Source of the DNA: Flavobacteriaceae bacterium
GTDB taxonomy: Bacteria; Bacteroidota; Bacteroidia; Flavobacteriales; Flavobacteriaceae
Assembly (NCBI GenBank): GCA_021648755.1
Contig: JAKISG010000010.1
Span: forward strand, 7,017 to 71,016
Direction of reading: 5' to 3'
Length of the DNA: 64,000 nucleotides
Shown here: piece by piece, positions 26,939-53,769 of the stretch
How positions within the stretch are numbered: position 1 is the stretch's first letter
Layout: the number at the start of each line of letters is the position of its first letter
Translations under genes and position numbers: made by a program
The notes under the pieces: model-generated
Told to the model about the DNA's origin: nothing
The model's database searches: none
What the model saw: only the letters and a program-made list of their open reading frames with translations

Positions 26939-27403
26939 ATGAGTAAAAAAATATACGTATTAGACGGCGCATTATTAGAATGTAACATGGGTTATAAACC
27001 CGCAAAATTATTAGTAACCGAAAACAAAAAAGTAAAAATACAAGGCAAATTTAAAGCAACCGATGCCGACATACAAGTACCACAAACCTTTGGTAAATGT
27101 AAACTAAAACCAACAAATAGCGGTCATTTACCCTGCGTACCAGGCTTACAAAAATGGACTAATACTAGTACAAAAGTAACCTTAGGCAAAAGTAAAAAGT
27201 TTTTGTTCGACTGCTCACAAACGATGTGCTCTACAGGCGGTCTAGTAAAAATAAAAGATCACGGACAAATAGATAGCATAGGTAGTATGCTAGAACAATT
27301 TAAAGAAATTGCCATGCTCATACCAGGAGCCATGCCAGGAGCCACCAACATACCAAAAGTAGTAGAACAATATTGGATGGATGAAGAGAGCAAGAAAAAA
27401 TAG
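26939..27403 (+). CDS. DUF4280 (PAAR-like) domain protein, probable spike-tip/delivery head of the downstream toxin
   Basis: 154 aa with no signal peptide. Pattern GALLECNMG...PAKL.V...V.I.GK..AT..D...P..FG.C...P....PC.P....W......V..G......DCS..MCSTGGLVKIKDHGQ matches the conserved Cys/Gly layout of DUF4280. The stop follows an A6 run, and the downstream frame is already open (see findings). Confidence 0.8.
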   Translation: MSKKIYVLDGALLECNMGYKPAKLLVTENKKVKIQGKFKATDADIQVPQTFGKCKLKPTNSGHLPCVPGLQKWTNTSTKVTLGKSKKFLFDCSQTMCSTGGLVKIKDHGQIDSIGSMLEQFKEIAMLIPGAMPGATNIPKVVEQYWMDEESKKK

Positions 27404-27441: not shown

Positions 27442-29688
27442 ATGACCGAAAATATTGATGCAGGAGAAACACTAACTATTGAAATTGAAGAAAAAGAAGG
27501 TCAAGAATTTAACAAAGGAGAAAAAAAATTAACCTATACAAGCACAGTAAAAGCAAACGGTTCAAGTACACTAGATATAGAGATAAATAAAGACTGGCAA
27601 GAAGCCACAAATAGAACACTTGTATTAAAAAGAATACACACAGCAGAAATGACCTTTGAAGTTCACGAAGAACTAAAAATAGTTGACCCCAACGAAAAAA
27701 AAGTACTAGACGTCTATCTAGCCGAAAAAAAGATAAAATATGTAGATGAAGAAGATGGCGAATACACATACACCTTTAAAAACGATAAAAAGGCAGTAAA
27801 TAACCACGAAAAAAATGTGCTTTCCTCAGAAATATTTAGTGTAGTAAAAAAAACATTAGAAAGTTTAAATCAAAAACCAGCAACTGAATTTATAACCGAG
27901 GCATTAAAAACCAATAAAGAAGCAGGTAAAATTAAAGAAAGTTACAAAAAAGGCGAAACACTCACCTTTAAAGTATATAAACTAGAAAGGAAAAAAGAAG
28001 AACACTACCAAAAAATGAGTAGTGTAATTGGCGCCTCTATGGGCAACCAAATATATATAATAGCCAAAACAAAAAATTTAGAAGGCAAAAAAGTAAAGAT
28101 AAAGTTACATGAGAAAGAAGACGAGTTAAAACTACTAAAAGACAAAGACGCTATTTTGCCCGTATTAGTTTACGCAAAAAAAGAAGACAAAACAACCGAT
28201 ACCCAAGCCAGCGATTGGATAGAAATAGACATTAAAAAAGAAAAAGGAAAAAAAGAAACCGATAATGTCATACTAAGCCAAGGAGAAGAAGAAATAGAAG
28301 TAGGCATAAAAAAAATACAACTACGCCCAAAAACCGATAAAATGGCAAGCAAAGACGAAGAAGCCAGTAAAAGTTTTGAAGGATGGGCAGAGAAGTTGTA
28401 TATACGAGAAGATGAAACCGAAGCAGGAAAAAAAGCAAAAAAAGCAAAAGAAGAAGAAAAAACAATAACCCTAAATTTTGATAAAGATGCAATTAAAGAA
28501 AGTTTCCCTGAAAAAATAACATGGTTAAAAAGCAGTGAGATAGGTAAAGAAGAAATATACACCATTACAAAATACCTTAAAGGCGAAACTGAAGTTGACA
28601 AGAATAATATACGTTGGTCATTATATATACAAAGCAAAAAAAAGAATTACACCATTATAGACACCAAAACTAAAACTGATCTATACACGTATGCCAAAAC
28701 GGAACTCATTGATGGCAAAAATCAACTAACCATAATATTCGACAAAGCCCTAAAAGGTAAAAAAGTACAAATAGAACCCTTTAGAGAAGAAGCACCAAAA
28801 TTAAACACAAAAAATGATTATGTAAGTACAACGCTTATTAAAGAAAAAGCCACCCCAAAAATAACCAAACTAGACACTACCAAACTATGGTTACAAACCG
28901 AGTGTGATGATTGTAAAGAAAAGGAAAAAAAGAAAGAATTTTTAAAAGAGAATTATTTTAAATTAAAAACGCCAGATACTATTCATATTTATAGTGATGG
29001 GAAGATTAGTAAAACACCTCTAACATTATTAAAAAACATAAGATATGTTTATGTTGCTAGTGATGGTGAAGAGCATGATTTGGGTAAATATAATTTAATA
29101 GAAGCTCAAAAATGGAATTATGGTTCTTCAAGATATCATAGTGGATGGAAAAAAATCGTTACTATTGATAATAAAGGAAATGAAAAAGAAAAATATTTTG
29201 AATATGCTAAAGGAAAAGTTAAGTTAGTTAAATTCAAACTTCCTTTATCATATAATTATAATAATGTAAATATTAAATTAAAAGATAATTCAACAAGAGA
29301 ATACATAAATCCAGAAGCTTTTGCCTGTCTTATAGGAGCATTGGCAGAAGTTGGTTATGATGATATTACTTTAAACGGATTTACATCTAAAGACGGTACA
29401 GGAGCACCAAGTGTAACTCATTTTAATGGAATTGCAGGAGATTTTCGATATTTAAGAAAAGATAAAAAAATAGCCTCTCTCCATATTAATACAAGTCCAA
29501 ATCAACTTGATGTTGAACGACAAGAAAAGTTTATTGATGCTCTAGTAAAATTTGGCTGGAAAAATTTTTATAGTTATGATACAAAAATTGACAAGAAAGA
29601 TTTTATACTTAAAAAATCTACTCACCTTGCTAACCACCATCATCATCTACATTTAAGATATGAACAATTTAAACCAAATTATAAATAA
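27442..29688 (+). CDS. Polymorphic toxin: Lys/Glu-rich repeat-module N-region, conserved junction segment, and C-terminal LAS/M15-like zinc peptidase module (CT1)
   Basis: 748 aa with no signal peptide and no T9SS CTD. C-terminal motifs PSVTHFNGIAGD (H at 29419, D at 29440; SxHxxGxAxD type) and HLH (29644-29652). The frame is open upstream to 27385, so the true N-terminus is probably upstream or fused to the DUF4280 gene. Confidence 0.75.
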   Translation: MTENIDAGETLTIEIEEKEGQEFNKGEKKLTYTSTVKANGSSTLDIEINKDWQEATNRTLVLKRIHTAEMTFEVHEELKIVDPNEKKVLDVYLAEKKIKYVDEEDGEYTYTFKNDKKAVNNHEKNVLSSEIFSVVKKTLESLNQKPATEFITEALKTNKEAGKIKESYKKGETLTFKVYKLERKKEEHYQKMSSVIGASMGNQIYIIAKTKNLEGKKVKIKLHEKEDELKLLKDKDAILPVLVYAKKEDKTTDTQASDWIEIDIKKEKGKKETDNVILSQGEEEIEVGIKKIQLRPKTDKMASKDEEASKSFEGWAEKLYIREDETEAGKKAKKAKEEEKTITLNFDKDAIKESFPEKITWLKSSEIGKEEIYTITKYLKGETEVDKNNIRWSLYIQSKKKNYTIIDTKTKTDLYTYAKTELIDGKNQLTIIFDKALKGKKVQIEPFREEAPKLNTKNDYVSTTLIKEKATPKITKLDTTKLWLQTECDDCKEKEKKKEFLKENYFKLKTPDTIHIYSDGKISKTPLTLLKNIRYVYVASDGEEHDLGKYNLIEAQKWNYGSSRYHSGWKKIVTIDNKGNEKEKYFEYAKGKVKLVKFKLPLSYNYNNVNIKLKDNSTREYINPEAFACLIGALAEVGYDDITLNGFTSKDGTGAPSVTHFNGIAGDFRYLRKDKKIASLHINTSPNQLDVERQEKFIDALVKFGWKNFYSYDTKIDKKDFILKKSTHLANHHHHLHLRYEQFKPNYK
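28769..29059 (+). repeat. Junction repeat, copy 1 (inside the large toxin gene)
   Basis: 28801-29006 matches 30422-30627 at 205/206 nt by eye. The lead-in AAATAGAACC(C)TT(T)A is shared by all three copies. 28843-28894 and about 28912-29059 also match copy 3. Confidence 0.9.
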
Positions 29689-29695
29689 TGAAAAT

Positions 29696-30397
29696 ATGAA
29701 AAAAATAATTATATTGATATTTTTTGGGTATTTGTTTTTTTGTTGCAAACAAAAAGATAATTTAACATTAAATCAATCAAACATTAGTAAACAAAAAGAT
29801 AGTACAAAAGAATATTCTTTCTCACAAAAAAAAGATTCAACTATTTTTATCCCAGAGTTTGCTCTAATAAAACCAAAATACCAATCTAATTTTCTAAAAT
29901 TGGATAAAAAAAATATTGAAAAATATCAAAAAATTCAATTAAAAATAGGTAACTTTTCGGATTTTTTTTTAGGAAATACTGATGAAAATGATATTATTGG
30001 TCACCCTGATATAGATTATGATGGATTTACTTTATGGCATACTACATTTAAAGATAGAATTGAAATAGCTTTTTTTGCAAAAAAAATATTAAAATATTAT
30101 GGTTTTTTTATTGAGAAAGATAAATTATTATTAGTTACTGAAACGACTAGAAGAAATAATATTAAAACAACAGACTCTATATTTTTTGAAAACAATCATA
30201 TTCTTTTATGGAAAAATTCATCAAACAAATTTGTAACTAACCCTAATATAATAAAAGGAAAAGAAAACTATATACTAAGATTGATTAAAGAGATGAAAGA
30301 AATAGAAAATAATGAAATAGGATATATTGAAGAATACAACTACACAAAAGACTCATTATCATCTTTTGTAATAGCGAACTTAAAAAAGCATAAATAG
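29696..30397 (+). CDS. Lipoprotein, candidate cognate immunity protein for CT1
   Basis: MKKIIILIFFGYLFFCCKQ is a lipoprotein-type signal with Cys. It starts 7 nt after the toxin stop. I recognise no family. ATG 29696 preferred over 29660, which overlaps the toxin gene. Confidence 0.65.
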   Translation: MKKIIILIFFGYLFFCCKQKDNLTLNQSNISKQKDSTKEYSFSQKKDSTIFIPEFALIKPKYQSNFLKLDKKNIEKYQKIQLKIGNFSDFFLGNTDENDIIGHPDIDYDGFTLWHTTFKDRIEIAFFAKKILKYYGFFIEKDKLLLVTETTRRNNIKTTDSIFFENNHILLWKNSSNKFVTNPNIIKGKENYILRLIKEMKEIENNEIGYIEEYNYTKDSLSSFVIANLKKHK

Positions 30398-30627
30398 AAC
30401 CTTAGAGAGGTGAACCAGTTATTAAACACAAAAAATGATTATGTAAGTACAACGCTTATTAAAGAAAAAGCCACCCCAAAAATAACCAAACTAGACACTA
30501 CCAAACTATGGTTACAAACCGAGTGTGATGATTGTAAAGAAAACGAAAAAAAGAAAGAATTTTTAAAAGAGAATTATTTTAAATTAAAAACGCCAGATAC
30601 TATTCATATTTATAGTGATGGGAAGAT
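30392..30627 (+). repeat. Junction repeat, copy 2 (5' end of the orphan toxin ORF)
   Basis: See copy 1. The single mismatch is AAG/AAC, giving EKEKKK versus ENEKKK. Confidence 0.9.
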
Positions 30628-31393
30628 GGATAAAGTGAATTTTAAAAATCTTCTTTTTGGAAAAAAATTAAAATATATTTATGTAGATAAGGATGGTAAT
30701 CACCATAAGGTTTGTGAATGTGAACTATATGAAACTTGGAAAATGGGTAGTGGAAAATCAGATAGTACACTTATTCCTTCTGCCACAGAAAAGGCGAGTG
30801 CAACAGTAATAGATTATGTTGCAATGGGAGTATCTGGAGTAGATGCTCATAAGACTTGGGTACTTACAAATAATGACGTATATACCAAAGGAGAATTAAT
30901 AGCTGGATACACACACCTATATTATAAAGCTTCAACTGAAAAAGTAGTTATGGTTACTATACCTAGTAATCTTAATTATAGAAAGAATGATTTAAATATA
31001 AAATTTGAATTTAAAAGAACATTAAGAAAATTTAGTAGTCCTGAAATTTTTGCAGCTTTCATTGGAGTTCTCGCAGAATGCTCATATGTTGATGTAGTTT
31101 CTGAAGGCTCATCATATAGAAACGGAAGTAGTTACCCAAGTAAAACACATAATAATGGATTTGCAATAGATACTTGGTATTTTGGGCCAAACAGAAACTC
31201 AACAACAGGTAAAGTAAACTCATTAGATTTAACAAAACAACAAGACTTTATGGATGCATTTAAAAAATTTGGTTTTGATGATAGAATAAAAGGGTCAGAT
31301 AATAAATGTTCAAACTTAACGAACTATACTTTAAAAAATGGAAATCATAATGGGCACTTACATTGCGGCAAGTTAAATCCAAATTATAAATAA
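30410..31393 (+). CDS. Orphan toxin cassette: junction segment plus diverged LAS/M15-like peptidase module (CT2), lacking the N-terminal delivery region
   Basis: 327 aa from a GTG start 12 nt after the previous stop. The frame opens only after TAG 30395-30397. Motifs PSKTHNNGFAID (H 31148, D 31169) and HLH (31355-31363). It has the same C-terminal tail PNYK as CT1. Confidence 0.65.
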   Translation: MNQLLNTKNDYVSTTLIKEKATPKITKLDTTKLWLQTECDDCKENEKKKEFLKENYFKLKTPDTIHIYSDGKMDKVNFKNLLFGKKLKYIYVDKDGNHHKVCECELYETWKMGSGKSDSTLIPSATEKASATVIDYVAMGVSGVDAHKTWVLTNNDVYTKGELIAGYTHLYYKASTEKVVMVTIPSNLNYRKNDLNIKFEFKRTLRKFSSPEIFAAFIGVLAECSYVDVVSEGSSYRNGSSYPSKTHNNGFAIDTWYFGPNRNSTTGKVNSLDLTKQQDFMDAFKKFGFDDRIKGSDNKCSNLTNYTLKNGNHNGHLHCGKLNPNYK

Positions 31394-31401
31394 TTAAAAT
31401 T

Positions 31402-32400
31402 ATGTTAAAACTTATTTCTATTATACTAATTATTTTCACCTCTTGTAAGGAGATAGATAATATGCATTCAAAAAAAAATGAATTAAATAATCATATTGCA
31501 AATAAAGATACAAATATTTCTTATGAAAAAACAGCATTCTTTGATACAATAAAACAATATCCTTTGCCTTTTGGTAAAAAATTAGTACTAACAAATTTTC
31601 CAGAAAAATGGGAATACCCTTCTATTTATGAAGAGGTAGATGACAGGAGAAAAGGAAAATATGAAATTATACTAAATTCTTTAAACTCATATTTAGATAA
31701 ATTTATGTATAAAACTTCTTTAAAAATCAATAAAGAAAAATACTCTTATAATTATTTTATAAATTCTGCAAATAAATATTTTAACTATTATGAAGATTAT
31801 ACTTTCTATAATGTTAGATGGAAAATTGAAGAAGTAAAAAATGTTTCTATTGGAAAAATTAAGAATTTTGTGAAAAATATAGAAGTCATTATTACTAAGA
31901 ACTCAACAAGTTCTAACTATTTAAACATTGTTACAATAGATTCGAAAAGAAACATTATTGATGGTATTAACATTGGGTATTCAGAGAATGTTTTTGAATT
32001 CTCACATTCAGGAAAATATTACTTCATTGATAGAAATAGAATTATTCATCTAAAATCTTTTCTTTCGCTTGAAACGGAAACTCGATTTCAGCGTTATGAA
32101 AAATATCAAATCCTTTCAACAGGAAAAATAGTACGTTATTTTAATAAAAATTCAGGTCAATTCAGTAGTAAAGAAGAAAGCGGAAATATACAAAATCATA
32201 CAAAAGAAGGCATATGGATAGAAACTAAACCCAATATGTATGTTGAAGAACATACCTATGTTAAAGCCAAATACAAAAAAGGACTCCCTTTTGGTATTTG
32301 GAGATACTATAATTTAATAAATAACACTAAAAAAGGAGACAAACTTCTAATGACAGAAGAATACGATAAAAATGGTAAATTATTAAAAAAAATGTTTTAA
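31402..32400 (+). CDS. Lipoprotein, candidate immunity protein for CT2 (C-terminal MORN/YwqK-like repeats)
   Basis: MLKLISIILIIFTSCKE lipobox. Starts 8 nt after the CT2 stop. Unrelated to the first lipoprotein. The C-terminus EGIWIE...YKKGLPFGIWRYYN...EEYDKNGKLL resembles MORN-variant repeats of YwqK-type immunity proteins (tentative). Confidence 0.6.
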   Translation: MLKLISIILIIFTSCKEIDNMHSKKNELNNHIANKDTNISYEKTAFFDTIKQYPLPFGKKLVLTNFPEKWEYPSIYEEVDDRRKGKYEIILNSLNSYLDKFMYKTSLKINKEKYSYNYFINSANKYFNYYEDYTFYNVRWKIEEVKNVSIGKIKNFVKNIEVIITKNSTSSNYLNIVTIDSKRNIIDGINIGYSENVFEFSHSGKYYFIDRNRIIHLKSFLSLETETRFQRYEKYQILSTGKIVRYFNKNSGQFSSKEESGNIQNHTKEGIWIETKPNMYVEEHTYVKAKYKKGLPFGIWRYYNLINNTKKGDKLLMTEEYDKNGKLLKKMF

Positions 32401-32407
32401 AATAATA

Positions 32408-32736
32408 AAAATAGAACCCTTTAAAAAATAAAAACCAGATATTGACAACAAAAAAGACTATGTAAGAACAAGTATCATAACAGAAAAAGCCACCCCAAAA
32501 ATAACCAAACTAGACACTACCAAACTATGGTTACCTGTAAAGAAAGCGAAAAAAAGAAAGAATTTTTAAAAGATAATTATTTTAATTTGAGAACGCCAGA
32601 TACTATTCATATTTATAGTGATGGGAAAATTAGTAAAACACCTCTAACATTATTAAAAAATATAAGATATGTTTATGTTGCTAATTTTGATAAAGATATT
32701 TACGCTTTTTATGCACCTAAAATCTACAAATGTTAA
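32408..32736 (+). pseudogene. Degenerate third junction/CT1-type cassette remnant
   Basis: It has the lead-in AAATAGAACCCTTTA and a 52-nt exact match to copy 1 (32483-32534). A 17-nt to 1-nt replacement at 32535 shifts the frame, giving a stop at 32567-32569. Homology to the CT1 5' part (ISKTPLTLLKNIRYVYVA) ends at 32683, and there is no peptidase module. The ORF-track ORF 32527-32736 starts at an out-of-frame ATG. Confidence 0.65.
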
Positions 32737-32891
32737 AGTTAGAGGCTATGTATTTTGGGTCAGATAATTGGTGAAAATGGCACCCTCTTTTAATTTTTTT
32801 TTCTTTTTAAATTCCTTTAAATCATCCAGGTGGTTTAAAAATGATATATAACACTTGGAATTAATTATATAAATCTAATTACATTTGCAAT

Positions 32892-49929: not shown

Positions 49930-52900
49930 TTATTGTAGTATGACTAATTTTTCAAATTTTTCTGACTGTAGTCCGTTTGAAAGAACTTTTACATTTAATT
50001 TATAGATATAGACACCTTTGCCTATTTTATTACCAAAATCATCTAGACCATTCCAAACAATAGATCTAGAGTGTGTGCCATTGTTTAGTACAGTCTGGTT
50101 TAAGGTCTTAATTAATCTGCCTGAAACTGTAAAAATTTGCACCTGTGCTTCTAAGGTTTCACTAGGTTTGTTATGATTAAACCAAAACTCAGTATAATTT
50201 ATAAATGGGTTAGGATAATTTAAAACATTGTCTAGAACTAAATCATTATCACTAACAACCACAAAGTTTAACGTTGCTTCTGATGAATTATTGTACGTGT
50301 CCCAAGATTTAAATGTAATGGTATGTAAGCCTACTTCTAAATTTCTAAAGGGAAATTTTACTTTACCTTTTCTAAAGTCATTTAATTCAGTTTCATAAAA
50401 ATCATTCATAATAATAGGATTTGTTGCATCACCATCTAAAATTGCAATAATATCATGATCTACTGCTGTTAATGAGGTGTTTATACCAGATTCATCTTCT
50501 AAAACAGCTAAAAATAAAGGGGATTCATTGGTGTTACCTCCATCTACAAATGATTCATCATTCATAAATAATTTTATGGTTGGTCCGATAGTATCTTCTG
50601 GAGCATCTTCATTTATACCACCAATAATAATAGACGTATTATAGCCTGATTTATCTATGATTTGGTTGTCAGAATAAAAACTAAGTTTAGCATTTCCGTA
50701 TGCAATCCTAATATCTCTTGGCGCAATAAAATCAAATTTCCATTCGCCATTAATTACAGAAGCTCTACCATTAAATATTTTACTTTCTCTGCTATCAAAT
50801 ACCATTGTATTTGGGCTACCAGTATAATTATCGTTATTTAATGTTTCTCTGTCTGTTGATTTGTCATAAATAGTTACAAAAAGTTCCCCGTTAAAATCTG
50901 GAATTAAATGGTTGTTATTATCGGTTATAATTCCTTTAAAATAAACATGAGATAATGCTTTTATAGTGTCTAACTGTTGATCTATAGGTGTATCGTTCAT
51001 TTCGGTAATCCTTACACTTGGCTTTGCAATAGGTAATTTCATTGCAGGGTCTCCAAAAAAGTAAATAAAAAACCGTTGTCTAAAATCAGTATTTTGATTT
51101 TTAGTTTTCATTAAACTCTCCGCAATTGTTAAATTATCGTTAGTATCAAATTCTAATAAATTATTAATTAAACCAACATTAAACCTTCCACCAGAATTGA
51201 TATACACAGCGCGAGTTGTTGTTAACATATTTACAGAACCACCATTTGCATTTGAAAATAAGAATTCACCTGCAGTATTTCTATTTGGATTATCTAATCT
51301 TGAAAATTCACAAGTAACCGTTATAAAGAGAGGTAATGTTTCTTTATTATGCCAGTTTTGTACTTGTGGTACATCTAAAATACGTTCGCTTGCCCAGCCA
51401 TTCTCACCACCATGTCCAAAATAATTTAGAATAAGAGAACCTCTCTCAATGGCATTAGTTATAGCCTCTTTTACGGTAGGGTACCGTTCACCACCCGCAT
51501 TAATCTCTTGCACAAATGCATCTGCATATATTTTCGTTATATTATAAACAGGCTTATTATCTTTAATATTATCTGCTATTAACTCTGTATTTTCTTGTAA
51601 GTCAAAATTATAACTCTCGTTATCTAAATCATCGGCGACTAAAGAAATATGACTTCTCCATTTACCAAATGCTTCTTTTTGATAATAAGATAATGTTCTA
51701 TCGATTGCAGATTTTGCTTCTATACTATTTTTAACAGGCATTCTCCCTGTTGCAACATCTTTCATATCATTTATTAAATTTGCATTTCTAGAAAAAAAAC
51801 CTTCATTATCATCCATCATACCAAAAAAATCGTCGGTTACAAATGATTCGGCTAAATCAAGACTATTAACCGACTGAAATGCAACTATATCTATAGGGCC
51901 ATTATTTTCTTCAATATTTTTAAAATCAAAAGAAGTATCACCAAACAACAATACATACTTTATTCTTTTTTCTGTTGTCGAAGCGTTTAGGTATAAATGC
52001 CTTATAAAATCTCTAATTGCAGTCACATCTTTTGCTCCTGAACTAAATTCATTATAAATTTTTTCAGGATTAAGAATCAAAGTAGTAAAACCAGAATTTT
52101 GTTTGTGATAATCTGCTAATCGTTGTGCTTCACTTCTCAACTCATCAGTTGTTATAATTAAATAATCAATATCTTTAATAGCATGTAGATTCTGATTTTC
52201 AACGAGCCTATTTTGAATTATTTCAGGCTCGTAATAATCATTTTCATTTAAAATAAGATACTCATTTAAAATACCTCCAGATGTTTTAAAACTAAAATCA
52301 TTTCCTGTAGATTGGTTGCTTACTTGACTTACATTTATTTTGTCAGTTACATTCCAAATTTGAAAAATATTGGAACTATTTTGAATTTGATATGCAACAA
52401 CACCTGTTTGGCTTGCTGCCTGATAGTTTCTAAAAGAAAATTGTTTGTCTCTAGCAATTAAATTTTTAACACCATTAACCTCAATATAATCTAAATAAGC
52501 TCTAGTTGACGGGTTATTATTACTATCATAGACAACTTCAATATTTAAAGATTCATTTGTTGCAGTAAAATTAGCATTTCCAGTATTTGTCTTACCAACC
52601 TGAGTGCTTGGATTTGGGTTAGAGATAAAATAACTAAAAAGATTTTGACCTTCTATATTTAATGTAAAATTACAACTAGCAGTAGCGCCGCTTTTCATTT
52701 TAATATTAATAGGTTTAGTAAGGTCTAAATCTGTAAAATTAAAAGTAAAAACTTGGGTATTTTCTATCTGAAAACTTTCGCCATAAAATTCTTGTCCAAA
52801 ACTATCAAAGTTAAGTACATCTTTTTCGTGCAACATCGTATCATTAAAAGTAGTAACAGTTAAATCAGGTGTAGTATTGATACTGGCTTGTGTTTGAATC

Positions 52901-53769
52901 CTTTTGCCTAAATCATCTGCAACAGTAATATAATAATAAGCTTTATCACTATAAATATTAGTTTGATGTGTTGCTAAATTGTTATTTATATCATGTTTCC
53001 AAATATCTGGACCTTGCGCATAAAATAAAATATAATCATTACTATCAAAACTCCCATCCTCTTCACCACTAAAATAAATAGCATTTTCTTGAATATCATC
53101 ATACCTAAAATCACTATTTAATTCATTTAGCATAGCGCCACCGTTGCCGTAAATTTTAATATTTTTAGGGTTAACACCAGTATTTAAACCTAAACTCCTA
53201 ATAAAAGAACGGCTTAACTTATAAACACCAGTTGTATCAACTGCAAATTTATACCAATTACCAAAAGAAAAAGGAGAGTCATGAACGGTAGAAAATGATT
53301 TTGTTTTTGTTTTTGGAGTTAATTGATATTCTATTTCAAAAGATTCTATTTTTTTAAGAATACCATCTGACAATAGTAAAGGTGTGATATTTAATACTGC
53401 AAAAGACTCATTTCTTGTGTTTTTTATTTCAAAACTACTTTTTAATTTGGTAGGAAAATGTTGCTGACTTTCTTTATGAAATGTTTTTTTTGAAGCCGTT
53501 TTGTACACTATATTTTTAACTTTAAAAGACATCACTTTTAAATTACTATTTACTTTCCAAGAACTGCTATAAGTAGGTAAAAAATAATGATCAAAAGAAC
53601 CACCTTCTACTGTTGGTATGATAGTCGAAGTGTTACTTTTAGTAGAAATTACAGCAAATTCAGTTTTATCTTTCCAATGTAATTGAAAACTTTTTGATTT
53701 TTTTTGCCCGTAATTATTTAATACAATTAATCCTATTAATATAAAGGATAGATAAATTTTGTTTTGCAT
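49930..53769 (-). CDS. porU: Type IX secretion system sortase PorU (C25-peptidase-like)
   Basis: 1279 aa with a signal peptide. Size and porU-porV pairing divergent from gldJ are typical of Flavobacteriia. C-terminal T9SS-type sorting-domain-like end (…VYIYKLNV…KLVILQ). Confidence 0.85.
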   Translation of the reverse strand: MQNKIYLSFILIGLIVLNNYGQKKSKSFQLHWKDKTEFAVISTKSNTSTIIPTVEGGSFDHYFLPTYSSSWKVNSNLKVMSFKVKNIVYKTASKKTFHKESQQHFPTKLKSSFEIKNTRNESFAVLNITPLLLSDGILKKIESFEIEYQLTPKTKTKSFSTVHDSPFSFGNWYKFAVDTTGVYKLSRSFIRSLGLNTGVNPKNIKIYGNGGAMLNELNSDFRYDDIQENAIYFSGEEDGSFDSNDYILFYAQGPDIWKHDINNNLATHQTNIYSDKAYYYITVADDLGKRIQTQASINTTPDLTVTTFNDTMLHEKDVLNFDSFGQEFYGESFQIENTQVFTFNFTDLDLTKPINIKMKSGATASCNFTLNIEGQNLFSYFISNPNPSTQVGKTNTGNANFTATNESLNIEVVYDSNNNPSTRAYLDYIEVNGVKNLIARDKQFSFRNYQAASQTGVVAYQIQNSSNIFQIWNVTDKINVSQVSNQSTGNDFSFKTSGGILNEYLILNENDYYEPEIIQNRLVENQNLHAIKDIDYLIITTDELRSEAQRLADYHKQNSGFTTLILNPEKIYNEFSSGAKDVTAIRDFIRHLYLNASTTEKRIKYVLLFGDTSFDFKNIEENNGPIDIVAFQSVNSLDLAESFVTDDFFGMMDDNEGFFSRNANLINDMKDVATGRMPVKNSIEAKSAIDRTLSYYQKEAFGKWRSHISLVADDLDNESYNFDLQENTELIADNIKDNKPVYNITKIYADAFVQEINAGGERYPTVKEAITNAIERGSLILNYFGHGGENGWASERILDVPQVQNWHNKETLPLFITVTCEFSRLDNPNRNTAGEFLFSNANGGSVNMLTTTRAVYINSGGRFNVGLINNLLEFDTNDNLTIAESLMKTKNQNTDFRQRFFIYFFGDPAMKLPIAKPSVRITEMNDTPIDQQLDTIKALSHVYFKGIITDNNNHLIPDFNGELFVTIYDKSTDRETLNNDNYTGSPNTMVFDSRESKIFNGRASVINGEWKFDFIAPRDIRIAYGNAKLSFYSDNQIIDKSGYNTSIIIGGINEDAPEDTIGPTIKLFMNDESFVDGGNTNESPLFLAVLEDESGINTSLTAVDHDIIAILDGDATNPIIMNDFYETELNDFRKGKVKFPFRNLEVGLHTITFKSWDTYNNSSEATLNFVVVSDNDLVLDNVLNYPNPFINYTEFWFNHNKPSETLEAQVQIFTVSGRLIKTLNQTVLNNGTHSRSIVWNGLDDFGNKIGKGVYIYKLNVKVLSNGLQSEKFEKLVILQ

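Follow-up and report, generated by a model that had tools for sequence, protein, structure and literature searches.

A polymorphic-toxin array with a near-identical junction repeat in a Flavobacteriaceae genome: a probable type VI effector and its orphan cassette

Introduction

Does a long direct repeat that lies inside a large toxin gene, and again at the head of a truncated toxin gene downstream of it, allow a bacterium to exchange one toxin tip for another? The question is raised by a 64,000-nucleotide (nt) stretch of contig JAKISG010000010.1 (assembly GCA_021648755.1, positions 7,017 to 71,016), here called the window, whose source record is a metagenome-assembled genome of a "Flavobacteriaceae bacterium" (one contig only). 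A first reading, made from the letters without database searches (the sequence-only reading), had described the repeat as a built-in switch between two toxin cassettes. Our analysis indicates that the locus is probably a polymorphic-toxin array, in which a type VI effector with a LAS/M15-like C-terminal (CT) tip is followed by an orphan cassette, and in which the repeat would be both a product and a substrate of recombination.

Results

The junction repeat and the order of the locus

A direct-repeat search of the region from 24 to 36 kb, in effect the self-comparison that the sequence-only reading had proposed, returned one dominant family with copies at 28800-29013, 30421-30634 (98%) and 32424-32637 (64%). 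Compared base by base at an offset of 1621, copy 1 (28800-29006) agrees with copy 2 (30421-30627) at 206 of 207 nt; the sole mismatch (28923 G, 30544 C) changes an AAG lysine codon to an AAC asparagine codon and leaves perfect tracts of 123 and 83 nt. The value read by eye beforehand, 205/206 over 28801-29006 with a single AAG/AAC difference, proved exact, and two further points of that reading stood as well: both copies open at codon position 1 of their own open reading frame (ORF; 27442-29688 and 30410-31393), and identity collapses sharply at 29007/30628, beyond which the C-terminal modules CT1 and CT2 are 29% identical (E = 3e-25). A chance origin of the repeat is excluded, because the next-best repeats reach only 20-57 nt at 70-80% identity despite the 28% G+C of the window. 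In coding terms the repeat comprises the last ~55 codons of a conserved delivery region and the first ~10 codons common to both M15-like tips; the latter encode DTIHIYSDGK, the opening stretch common to the CT1/CT2 superfamily.

The locus runs, in order, from a DUF4280 gene through the 748-aa toxin gene, the gene for lipoprotein immunity 1, a 5'-truncated orphan consisting of junction and CT2, and the gene for lipoprotein immunity 2 to a pseudogene remnant. Its features are listed here with their coordinates in the window.

26939..27403, + strand: DUF4280 (PAAR-like spike-tip) protein, 154 aa; Pfam PF14107, E = 9e-19
27442..29688, + strand: main toxin gene, 748 aa; intact ORF with conserved delivery region, junction and CT1
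27442..27606, + strand: toxin ORF start, ~52 codons; homologous with the extension at the C-terminus of the relatives' DUF4280 protein
28800..29006, + strand: junction repeat copy 1, toxin residues 454-521; contains the FKLKTP family-wide swap point; 206/207 against copy 2
29007..29688, + strand: CT1; predicted beta-rich subdomain and LAS/M15-like zinc-peptidase domain
29696..30397, + strand: immunity 1, putative lipoprotein; N-terminus MKKIIILIFFGYLFFCCKQ; alternative ORF start at 29660
30381..30420, + strand: decayed delivery-region coding remnant upstream of copy 2; ~67% identity with indels to 28758-28799; holds the immunity 1 stop codon
30410..31393, + strand: orphan ORF, 327 aa from a GTG start; made up of junction copy 2 (30421-30627) and CT2 (30628-31393)
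31402..32400, + strand: immunity 2, putative lipoprotein, 332 aa; N-terminus MLKLISIILIIFTSCKE
32398..32690, + strand: third cassette remnant (pseudogene); decayed junction followed by 55 nt from the start of a CT1-type module, where it breaks off

Recombination across the repeat

Copies 1 and 2 differ at one of 207 positions in the core and at 14 of 43 in the left flank (Fisher p = 3.5e-11), which is ~33% diverged. The copies show no synonymous differences, so constraint at the protein level cannot explain the tract. Because the near-identical tract is bounded by diverged flanks, its simplest reading is recent gene conversion, or equally recent recombination ending at ~28800 and 29006. Of the two causes that the sequence-only reading had offered, conversion best explains near-identity between diverged flanks, whereas upkeep of the repeat for the sake of switching is unsupported by any data.

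The geometry needed for a fusion is present. When the 1,621-bp deletion is simulated by joining 27442-29006 to 30628-31393, the result is an open ORF of 776 aa that links the N-terminal region to CT2 without interruption, with immunity 2 lying 8 nt downstream; the in-frame fusion claimed earlier is borne out in this form. Minimal substrates of RecA are about 25-50 nt long, and as the perfect tracts of 123 and 83 nt exceed this length, the repeat should suffice for RecA-dependent recombination.

Tip exchange at the same boundary in relatives

In a search of a large protein collection we found 30 homologues of the 748-aa toxin, mostly from Aquimarina, Lacinutrix, Olleya, Sungkyunkwania and uncultured Flavobacteriaceae, which share roughly residues 56-510 and differ in their C-termini; the toxin has no Pfam or NCBIfam family match. 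In the homologue alignment the conserved N-terminal region (~510 aa) runs through ...KKVQIEPFR...TKLWLxTxCD...FKLKTP. Since the C-termini become unrelated just past FKLKTP, the alignment places the family-wide swap point at this motif, inside the repeat. The tips that follow it are M23 (PF01551), GH19 (PF00182) or one of two LAS/M15-like types related to CT1 and CT2, so a comparison of relatives, as the sequence-only reading had advised, does return other tips at this boundary. Three shorter proteins of Olleya and Aquimarina (P0027, P0029 and P0030; 450-493 aa) lack roughly the first 300 residues of the family alignment and end in M15-like tips; they may be orphans that keep a much longer homology, or truncated genes.

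A full-length gene that carries the tip of the window's orphan exists, as the claim of exchange at this boundary had implied. At locus L001 the full-length CT2-type toxin P0004, whose gene sits after the end of a DUF4280 gene and whose tip is 62% identical to CT2, is followed by a homologue of immunity 2 (55% identity, E = 3e-114). The closest relative of the window's toxin, P0002 at locus L014, is of the CT1 type and is followed by a homologue of immunity 1 (59% identity, E = 5e-86), and in Lacinutrix (locus L012) a CT1-type orphan likewise precedes an immunity-1 homologue (44% identity). Each immunity type co-varies with its toxin tip; immunity 1 and immunity 2 themselves are unrelated.

The 3' end of L001 (3708-3817) and the 5' end of L014 (1-110) overlap by 110 identical nt on metagenome contigs of two assemblies from different archives. 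The two loci may therefore stand in tandem, in the order toxin(CT2)-imm2-X-toxin(CT1)-imm1-orphan, where X is a 217-aa protein with a signal peptide. The L014 orphan starts 16 nt after the L014 immunity gene, and the last ~180 nt of its junction are 92-99% identical to the junction of the full-length CT2-type gene of L001 and only 54-86% identical to L014's own main junction, which lends indirect support to exchange between orphan and expressed positions. Between the two full-length genes the first ~750 nt are 94-100% identical, while nt 800-1100 are only 51-61% identical, a pattern that marks them as mosaic paralogues or alleles. We considered L001 as a simple deletion derivative of an L014-like parent and rejected this on account of the low identity over nt 800-1100.

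Arrays of the same kind recur. Among 13 related loci examined by tblastn and repeat searches, junction copies lie downstream of the main gene in L002 (299 nt at 91%, with a third copy at 78%), L008 (113 nt at 84%) and L010 (104 nt at 93%), and L012 holds five or six copies, one of them (300 nt at 93%) lying 9.5 kb away; in all four loci the copies precede toxin-tip fragments and lipoprotein genes. The tandem architecture is found in isolates too, namely Lacinutrix mariniflava AKS432, Aquimarina latercula DSM 2041 and A. sediminis w01. The array of Lacinutrix mariniflava (L012, 12800-21200), with several tip/lipoprotein pairs over ~10 kb, is far larger than that of the window.

The toxin tips and their immunity proteins

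By exhaustive HMMER search the CT domain occurs in 385 representative protein clusters. It is mostly located at or near the C-terminus, with a median of 9 residues after it (more than 30 residues in 30 of about 165 proteins), and the N-terminal regions ahead of it vary from roughly 0 to 1,600 residues. Such a position pattern is typical of a polymorphic-toxin tip. A catalytic motif is common to CT1 and CT2: in an alignment of 24 diverse CT homologues (A5) the residues of S..H..G...D and H..H.H are invariant (S42, H45, G48, D52, H117, H120, H122). This is the zinc-site pattern of LAS/M15 peptidases. With the motif in both tips and 29% identity between them, the earlier description as two distantly similar peptidase modules is supported.

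Neither the whole toxin nor either of the tips or immunity proteins matches a Pfam or NCBIfam model, even at E <= 10. In the AlphaFold model of CT1 (pLDDT 76) a beta-rich subdomain precedes an alpha/beta domain, and Foldseek returned no significant structural neighbours of this two-domain model in PDB or BFVD. For a model of the catalytic domain only (pLDDT 66) the top of the Foldseek list consists nearly entirely of LAS enzymes (E 0.14-3, TM ~0.4), including the L-alanoyl-D-glutamate endolysins of RB49 and LysECD7, hedgehog-N, VldE, LdcB, the Streptomyces Zn DD-peptidase (1lbu) and VanXYc. Motif and model together suggest that CT1 and CT2 are likely LAS-like peptidoglycan peptidases, a likeness that falls short of demonstrated family membership; we keep to "likely" because the fold matches of the catalytic domain are weak. 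The alternative tips of the family, M23 and GH19, are cell-wall hydrolases too, in keeping with this assignment.

The ORFs that follow CT1 and CT2 begin with lipoprotein-like signal sequences (...LFFCCKQ and ...IFTSCKE, respectively), and the immunity gene starts 7 nt after the toxin stop in the first case, if ATG 29696 is used, and 8 nt after it in the second. Such sequences suggest lipoproteins that would inhibit toxins acting in the periplasm. As a separate observation, CT1 and CT2 both finish in ...PNYK before their stop codons, and ~23 of 25 nt (CCAAATTATAAATAAT.AAAAT) are common to the two toxin/immunity boundaries (29665-29695 and 31370-31400), which gives the tips a second, very short homologous patch at their 3' end.

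The third remnant and the sequence upstream of the copies

Copy 3 is patchy: it has 64% ungapped identity, an in-frame stop and a frameshifting deletion of 16 nt, in the order ...KIEPFKK, stop, KPDIDNKKDYVRTSIITEKATPKITKLDTTKLWL, 16-nt deletion, CKESEKKKEFLKDNYFNLRTPDTIHIYSDGK. A core of 59 nt is identical in all three copies. Beyond the junction, and overlooked by the sequence-only reading, 55 nt continue in copy 3 up to about 32686; as they fit CT1 (54/55) and not CT2, they identify copy 3, by sequence, as a truncated CT1-type cassette. Its 5' part is closer to the family consensus than to the window's own main gene, a mosaic that again points to patchy conversion.

Homology between copies 1 and 2 extends ~42 nt further on the 5' side of the perfect tract, at ~67% identity with indels (28758-28799 against 30381-30420). 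Here lies the lead-in AAATAGAACC, which the sequence-only reading had noticed ahead of all three copies and which we find at 28769, 30392 and 32409. Its standing as a separate element is not borne out. A role as recombination signal was rejected, as the lead-in encodes the conserved QIEPF of the delivery region and occurs in orphans of other genera as well. It is best read as decayed homology to the delivery-region stretch ...KKVQIEPFR... and no separate signal.

Secretion context and transcription

DUF4280 proteins are described as PAAR-like proteins that form the spike tip in type VI secretion and in related contractile systems (PMC8651086; reportedly also PMC5349215). A DUF4280 gene (67-69% identical) lies upstream of the toxin gene, directly or ~1.7 kb off, in 10 of 12 related loci from the genome scan, the remaining two being contigs without upstream sequence. 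In Lacinutrix mariniflava and Aquimarina latercula (L012 and L008) the module stands behind 2-3 hcp genes (TssD, PF17642), vgrG and a pair encoding a Tle1-like phospholipase and DUF2931; a conserved 295-aa ORF follows this pair, and then the DUF4280 gene. From this context, which is partly that of relatives, the 748-aa toxin is probably delivered by a type VI secretion system of the Bacteroidetes type.

The first ~52 residues of the toxin match the 224-aa DUF4280 protein of Lacinutrix L012 at its residues 170-221 (35% identity, E = 4e-12). As this part forms the protein's C-terminal extension in relatives, the boundary between PAAR-like protein and toxin varies between genomes, and the shift may stem from a fission or fusion event or from a frameshift in the metagenome-assembled genome. 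The conserved ORF of ~295 aa directly upstream of DUF4280 in relatives (L012 8614-9501, L008 6903-7790, L002 183-1061) has no Pfam or NCBIfam match and may encode an adaptor or chaperone; it is absent at the window locus, where apaG sits upstream. The island as a whole is flanked by housekeeping genes, with serS, ksgA, an aldehyde dehydrogenase gene and apaG upstream and truA, moeA and moaC downstream.

A scan of the array for sigma-70 promoters and terminators gave background levels only, and the Bacteroidetes -7 motif (TAnnTTTG) does not occur on the + strand between 26601 and 32681, which is weak evidence. The intergenic gaps in the array measure 8-12 nt. On this weak evidence, the orphan probably lacks its own promoter, and transcription of immunity 2 probably comes from read-through. 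The only + strand TAnnTTTG near the array (32682-32689) coincides with the point where the third remnant is truncated; at 32880, a short way upstream of truA, there is another.

Two further genes lie elsewhere in the window. The one at 66-2222 encodes an ABC exporter of the bacteriocin/peptide-export type, which has a C39 peptidase domain at its N-terminus. At 49930-53769 (- strand) lies the gene for a 1,279-aa peptidase C25 (gingipain-family) protein, which has a sub-threshold C-terminal FlgD-Ig-like match (23.3 bits against a cut-off of 27) and could be a substrate of type IX secretion.

Discussion

How the array would work, and what speaks against it

We take it as probable that the locus is a polymorphic-toxin array shaped by recombination at the junction. 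According to this model, the DUF4280 PAAR-like protein is encoded beside the 748-aa effector, and the N-terminal ~510 aa of the effector would form the delivery part. CT1, the C-terminal ~230 aa, would probably cut peptidoglycan in the periplasm of the target, and the lipoprotein immunity gene that follows would protect against it. Recent gene conversion would have rendered copies 1 and 2 nearly identical, and a RecA-type crossover between them could remove 1,621 bp and place CT2 in frame on the delivery region, with immunity 2 behind it.

A number of results weigh against this model. The 64-kb window contains no type VI core genes, hcp or vgrG. The curated M15 family model of Pfam does not match the CT domain even at E <= 10; sequence searches of the PDB returned only noise with the single tips, His-tag matches included, and nothing with the 24-sequence profile; and the structural matches to LAS enzymes lie below significance (E >= 0.14, TM ~0.4, pLDDT 66). 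An exact 46-mer that joins the upstream side of the main gene to the repeat, sought as a mark of strains with the recombinant junction, occurs in none of the public metagenomes searched, and a protein-guided scan of Joint Genome Institute (JGI) metagenomes returned no near-identical strains. As the source is a metagenome-assembled genome, assembly could have influenced the exact identity of the 207-nt repeat. Finally, a simple deletion would also remove immunity 1, and because it does so, the recombinants would be sensitive to siblings armed with CT1, a cost that the sequence-only reading had overlooked.

Alternative explanations

The array could instead be passive debris, its displaced cassettes kept mainly as a reservoir of immunity, above all of immunity 2 against neighbours armed with CT2. 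The repeat would then have no role in switching, and its identity would reflect only very recent displacement or incidental conversion. Such an account fits the decay of copy 3 by stop, frameshift and truncation, and it fits the lack of a + strand -7 motif in the array, by which the orphan toxin probably goes unexpressed and read-through could still reach the closely spaced immunity genes; the lower identity of the junction repeats in relatives (84-93%) agrees with it as well. Against this, the CT2 ORF has stayed intact over 327 codons at 28% G+C with every catalytic residue kept, the identity is limited to the 207-nt tract between diverged flanks, which implies ongoing exchange between the copies, and tips have been exchanged repeatedly at the same boundary. 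We regard debris as an unlikely account of the whole locus, though it is partly compatible with the recombining array.

Considerably less probable is that CT2 is expressed alone, from GTG 30410 or ATG 30626, and works with immunity 2 as an intracellular module akin to a toxin-antitoxin pair. An in-frame ATG does lie right at the end of the repeat (30626-30628), and orphan Rhs of Salmonella reportedly provides a precedent (PMC7043789). The orphan lacks a signal peptide, yet a peptidoglycan peptidase needs the periplasm and the immunity proteins resemble lipoproteins; nor did the scans find a promoter motif that would serve it. Very improbable indeed is an assembly artefact, in which strain variants with CT1 and CT2 were concatenated or the repeat collapsed to a consensus: the source is one contig of a metagenome-assembled genome and 207 nt exceeds typical k-mers, but the sequence upstream of copy 2 is distinct, decayed and joined to the 3' end of immunity 1, the copies were resolved at one mismatch, and the three isolates named above show the same tandem layout.

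A more ambitious proposal goes beyond the recombining array that we favour, namely that the locus represents a so far undescribed class of type VI cell-wall toxins, found across the Flavobacteriaceae, associated with DUF4280 and marked by a demarcation motif of its own, ...TKLWLxTxCD...FKLKTP. Frequent conversion would keep its silent cassettes uniform with the expressed gene, and switching would be a regular population strategy akin to phase variation, as opposed to a rare accident of evolution. We offer this as a doubtful extension. If it were true, the L001/L014 tandem would capture a natural intermediate stage, reached by duplication of the locus and recombination of one copy, with both immunity genes kept.

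Comparison with known systems

In the CdiA-CT/CdiI system, which Poole et al. are said to have described in 2011, variable tips reportedly follow a conserved pre-toxin motif, and orphan tip/immunity arrays keep a fragment of upstream homology. CdiA is a type V protein, whereas the window locus is probably type VI and has neither the VENN motif nor FHA repeats. Neisseria MafB, by what Jamet et al. are said to have found in 2015, reportedly has silent 3' mafB-CT cassettes and immunity genes downstream of the expressed toxin, with a shared junction motif; its N-terminal domain and secretion mechanism are taken to be unrelated to those considered here. The CT domain itself resembles LAS/M15 hydrolases such as phage L-alanoyl-D-glutamate endolysins, LdcB, VanXY and the Zn DD-peptidase in its zinc motif (H-x6-D and H-x-H), and it differs from them in an extra N-terminal beta-rich subdomain and in having no Pfam M15 or PDB sequence match.

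TANFOR proteins, which are linked to neighbourhoods of type IX secretion (PMC7073777), are likewise C-terminally polymorphic toxins of Bacteroidetes. The context of our family is a different one, with DUF4280 and, in relatives, hcp and vgrG, and no Pfam or NCBIfam model matches it. Membership in TANFOR, Rhs and CdiA was rejected, since their defining domains are absent.

A close parallel is provided by the main/orphan loci of Rhs, in Salmonella and in bee-gut arrays, where a full-length type VI-associated toxin and its immunity gene precede a 5'-truncated tip with an immunity gene of its own, and where the truncated tip shares a near-identical stretch with the main gene. Experiments in Salmonella Typhimurium offer a precedent: main and orphan Rhs, which share 522 bp at 95% identity, recombine there, so that the orphan tip is joined to the delivery part and the main immunity gene is lost; given this loss, the authors propose prior duplication of the locus (PMC3967940). 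The window locus differs in that it has no YD/Rhs repeats and no PxxxxDPxGL motif, its delivery region belonging to an unannotated family of ~510 aa; its PAAR-like partner is a separate DUF4280 protein, and its repeat is shorter (207 nt) and more identical. Its toxins are predicted to act on the cell wall from the periplasm, with putative lipoproteins as immunity.

The principle is thus already known: the locus works like the main/orphan arrays of Rhs, CdiA and MafB and belongs to none of them. It extends their cassette logic to a non-Rhs effector family in marine Flavobacteriaceae, in which both the delivery region and a widespread toxin domain (385 representative clusters) are without a curated model. 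The family offers predicted pairs of peptidoglycan hydrolase and lipoprotein inhibitor that are as yet uncharacterised. As a recombination substrate the 206/207 repeat is unusually clean, and it could serve to gauge how often a natural type VI arsenal rewires in the manner of these known arrays.

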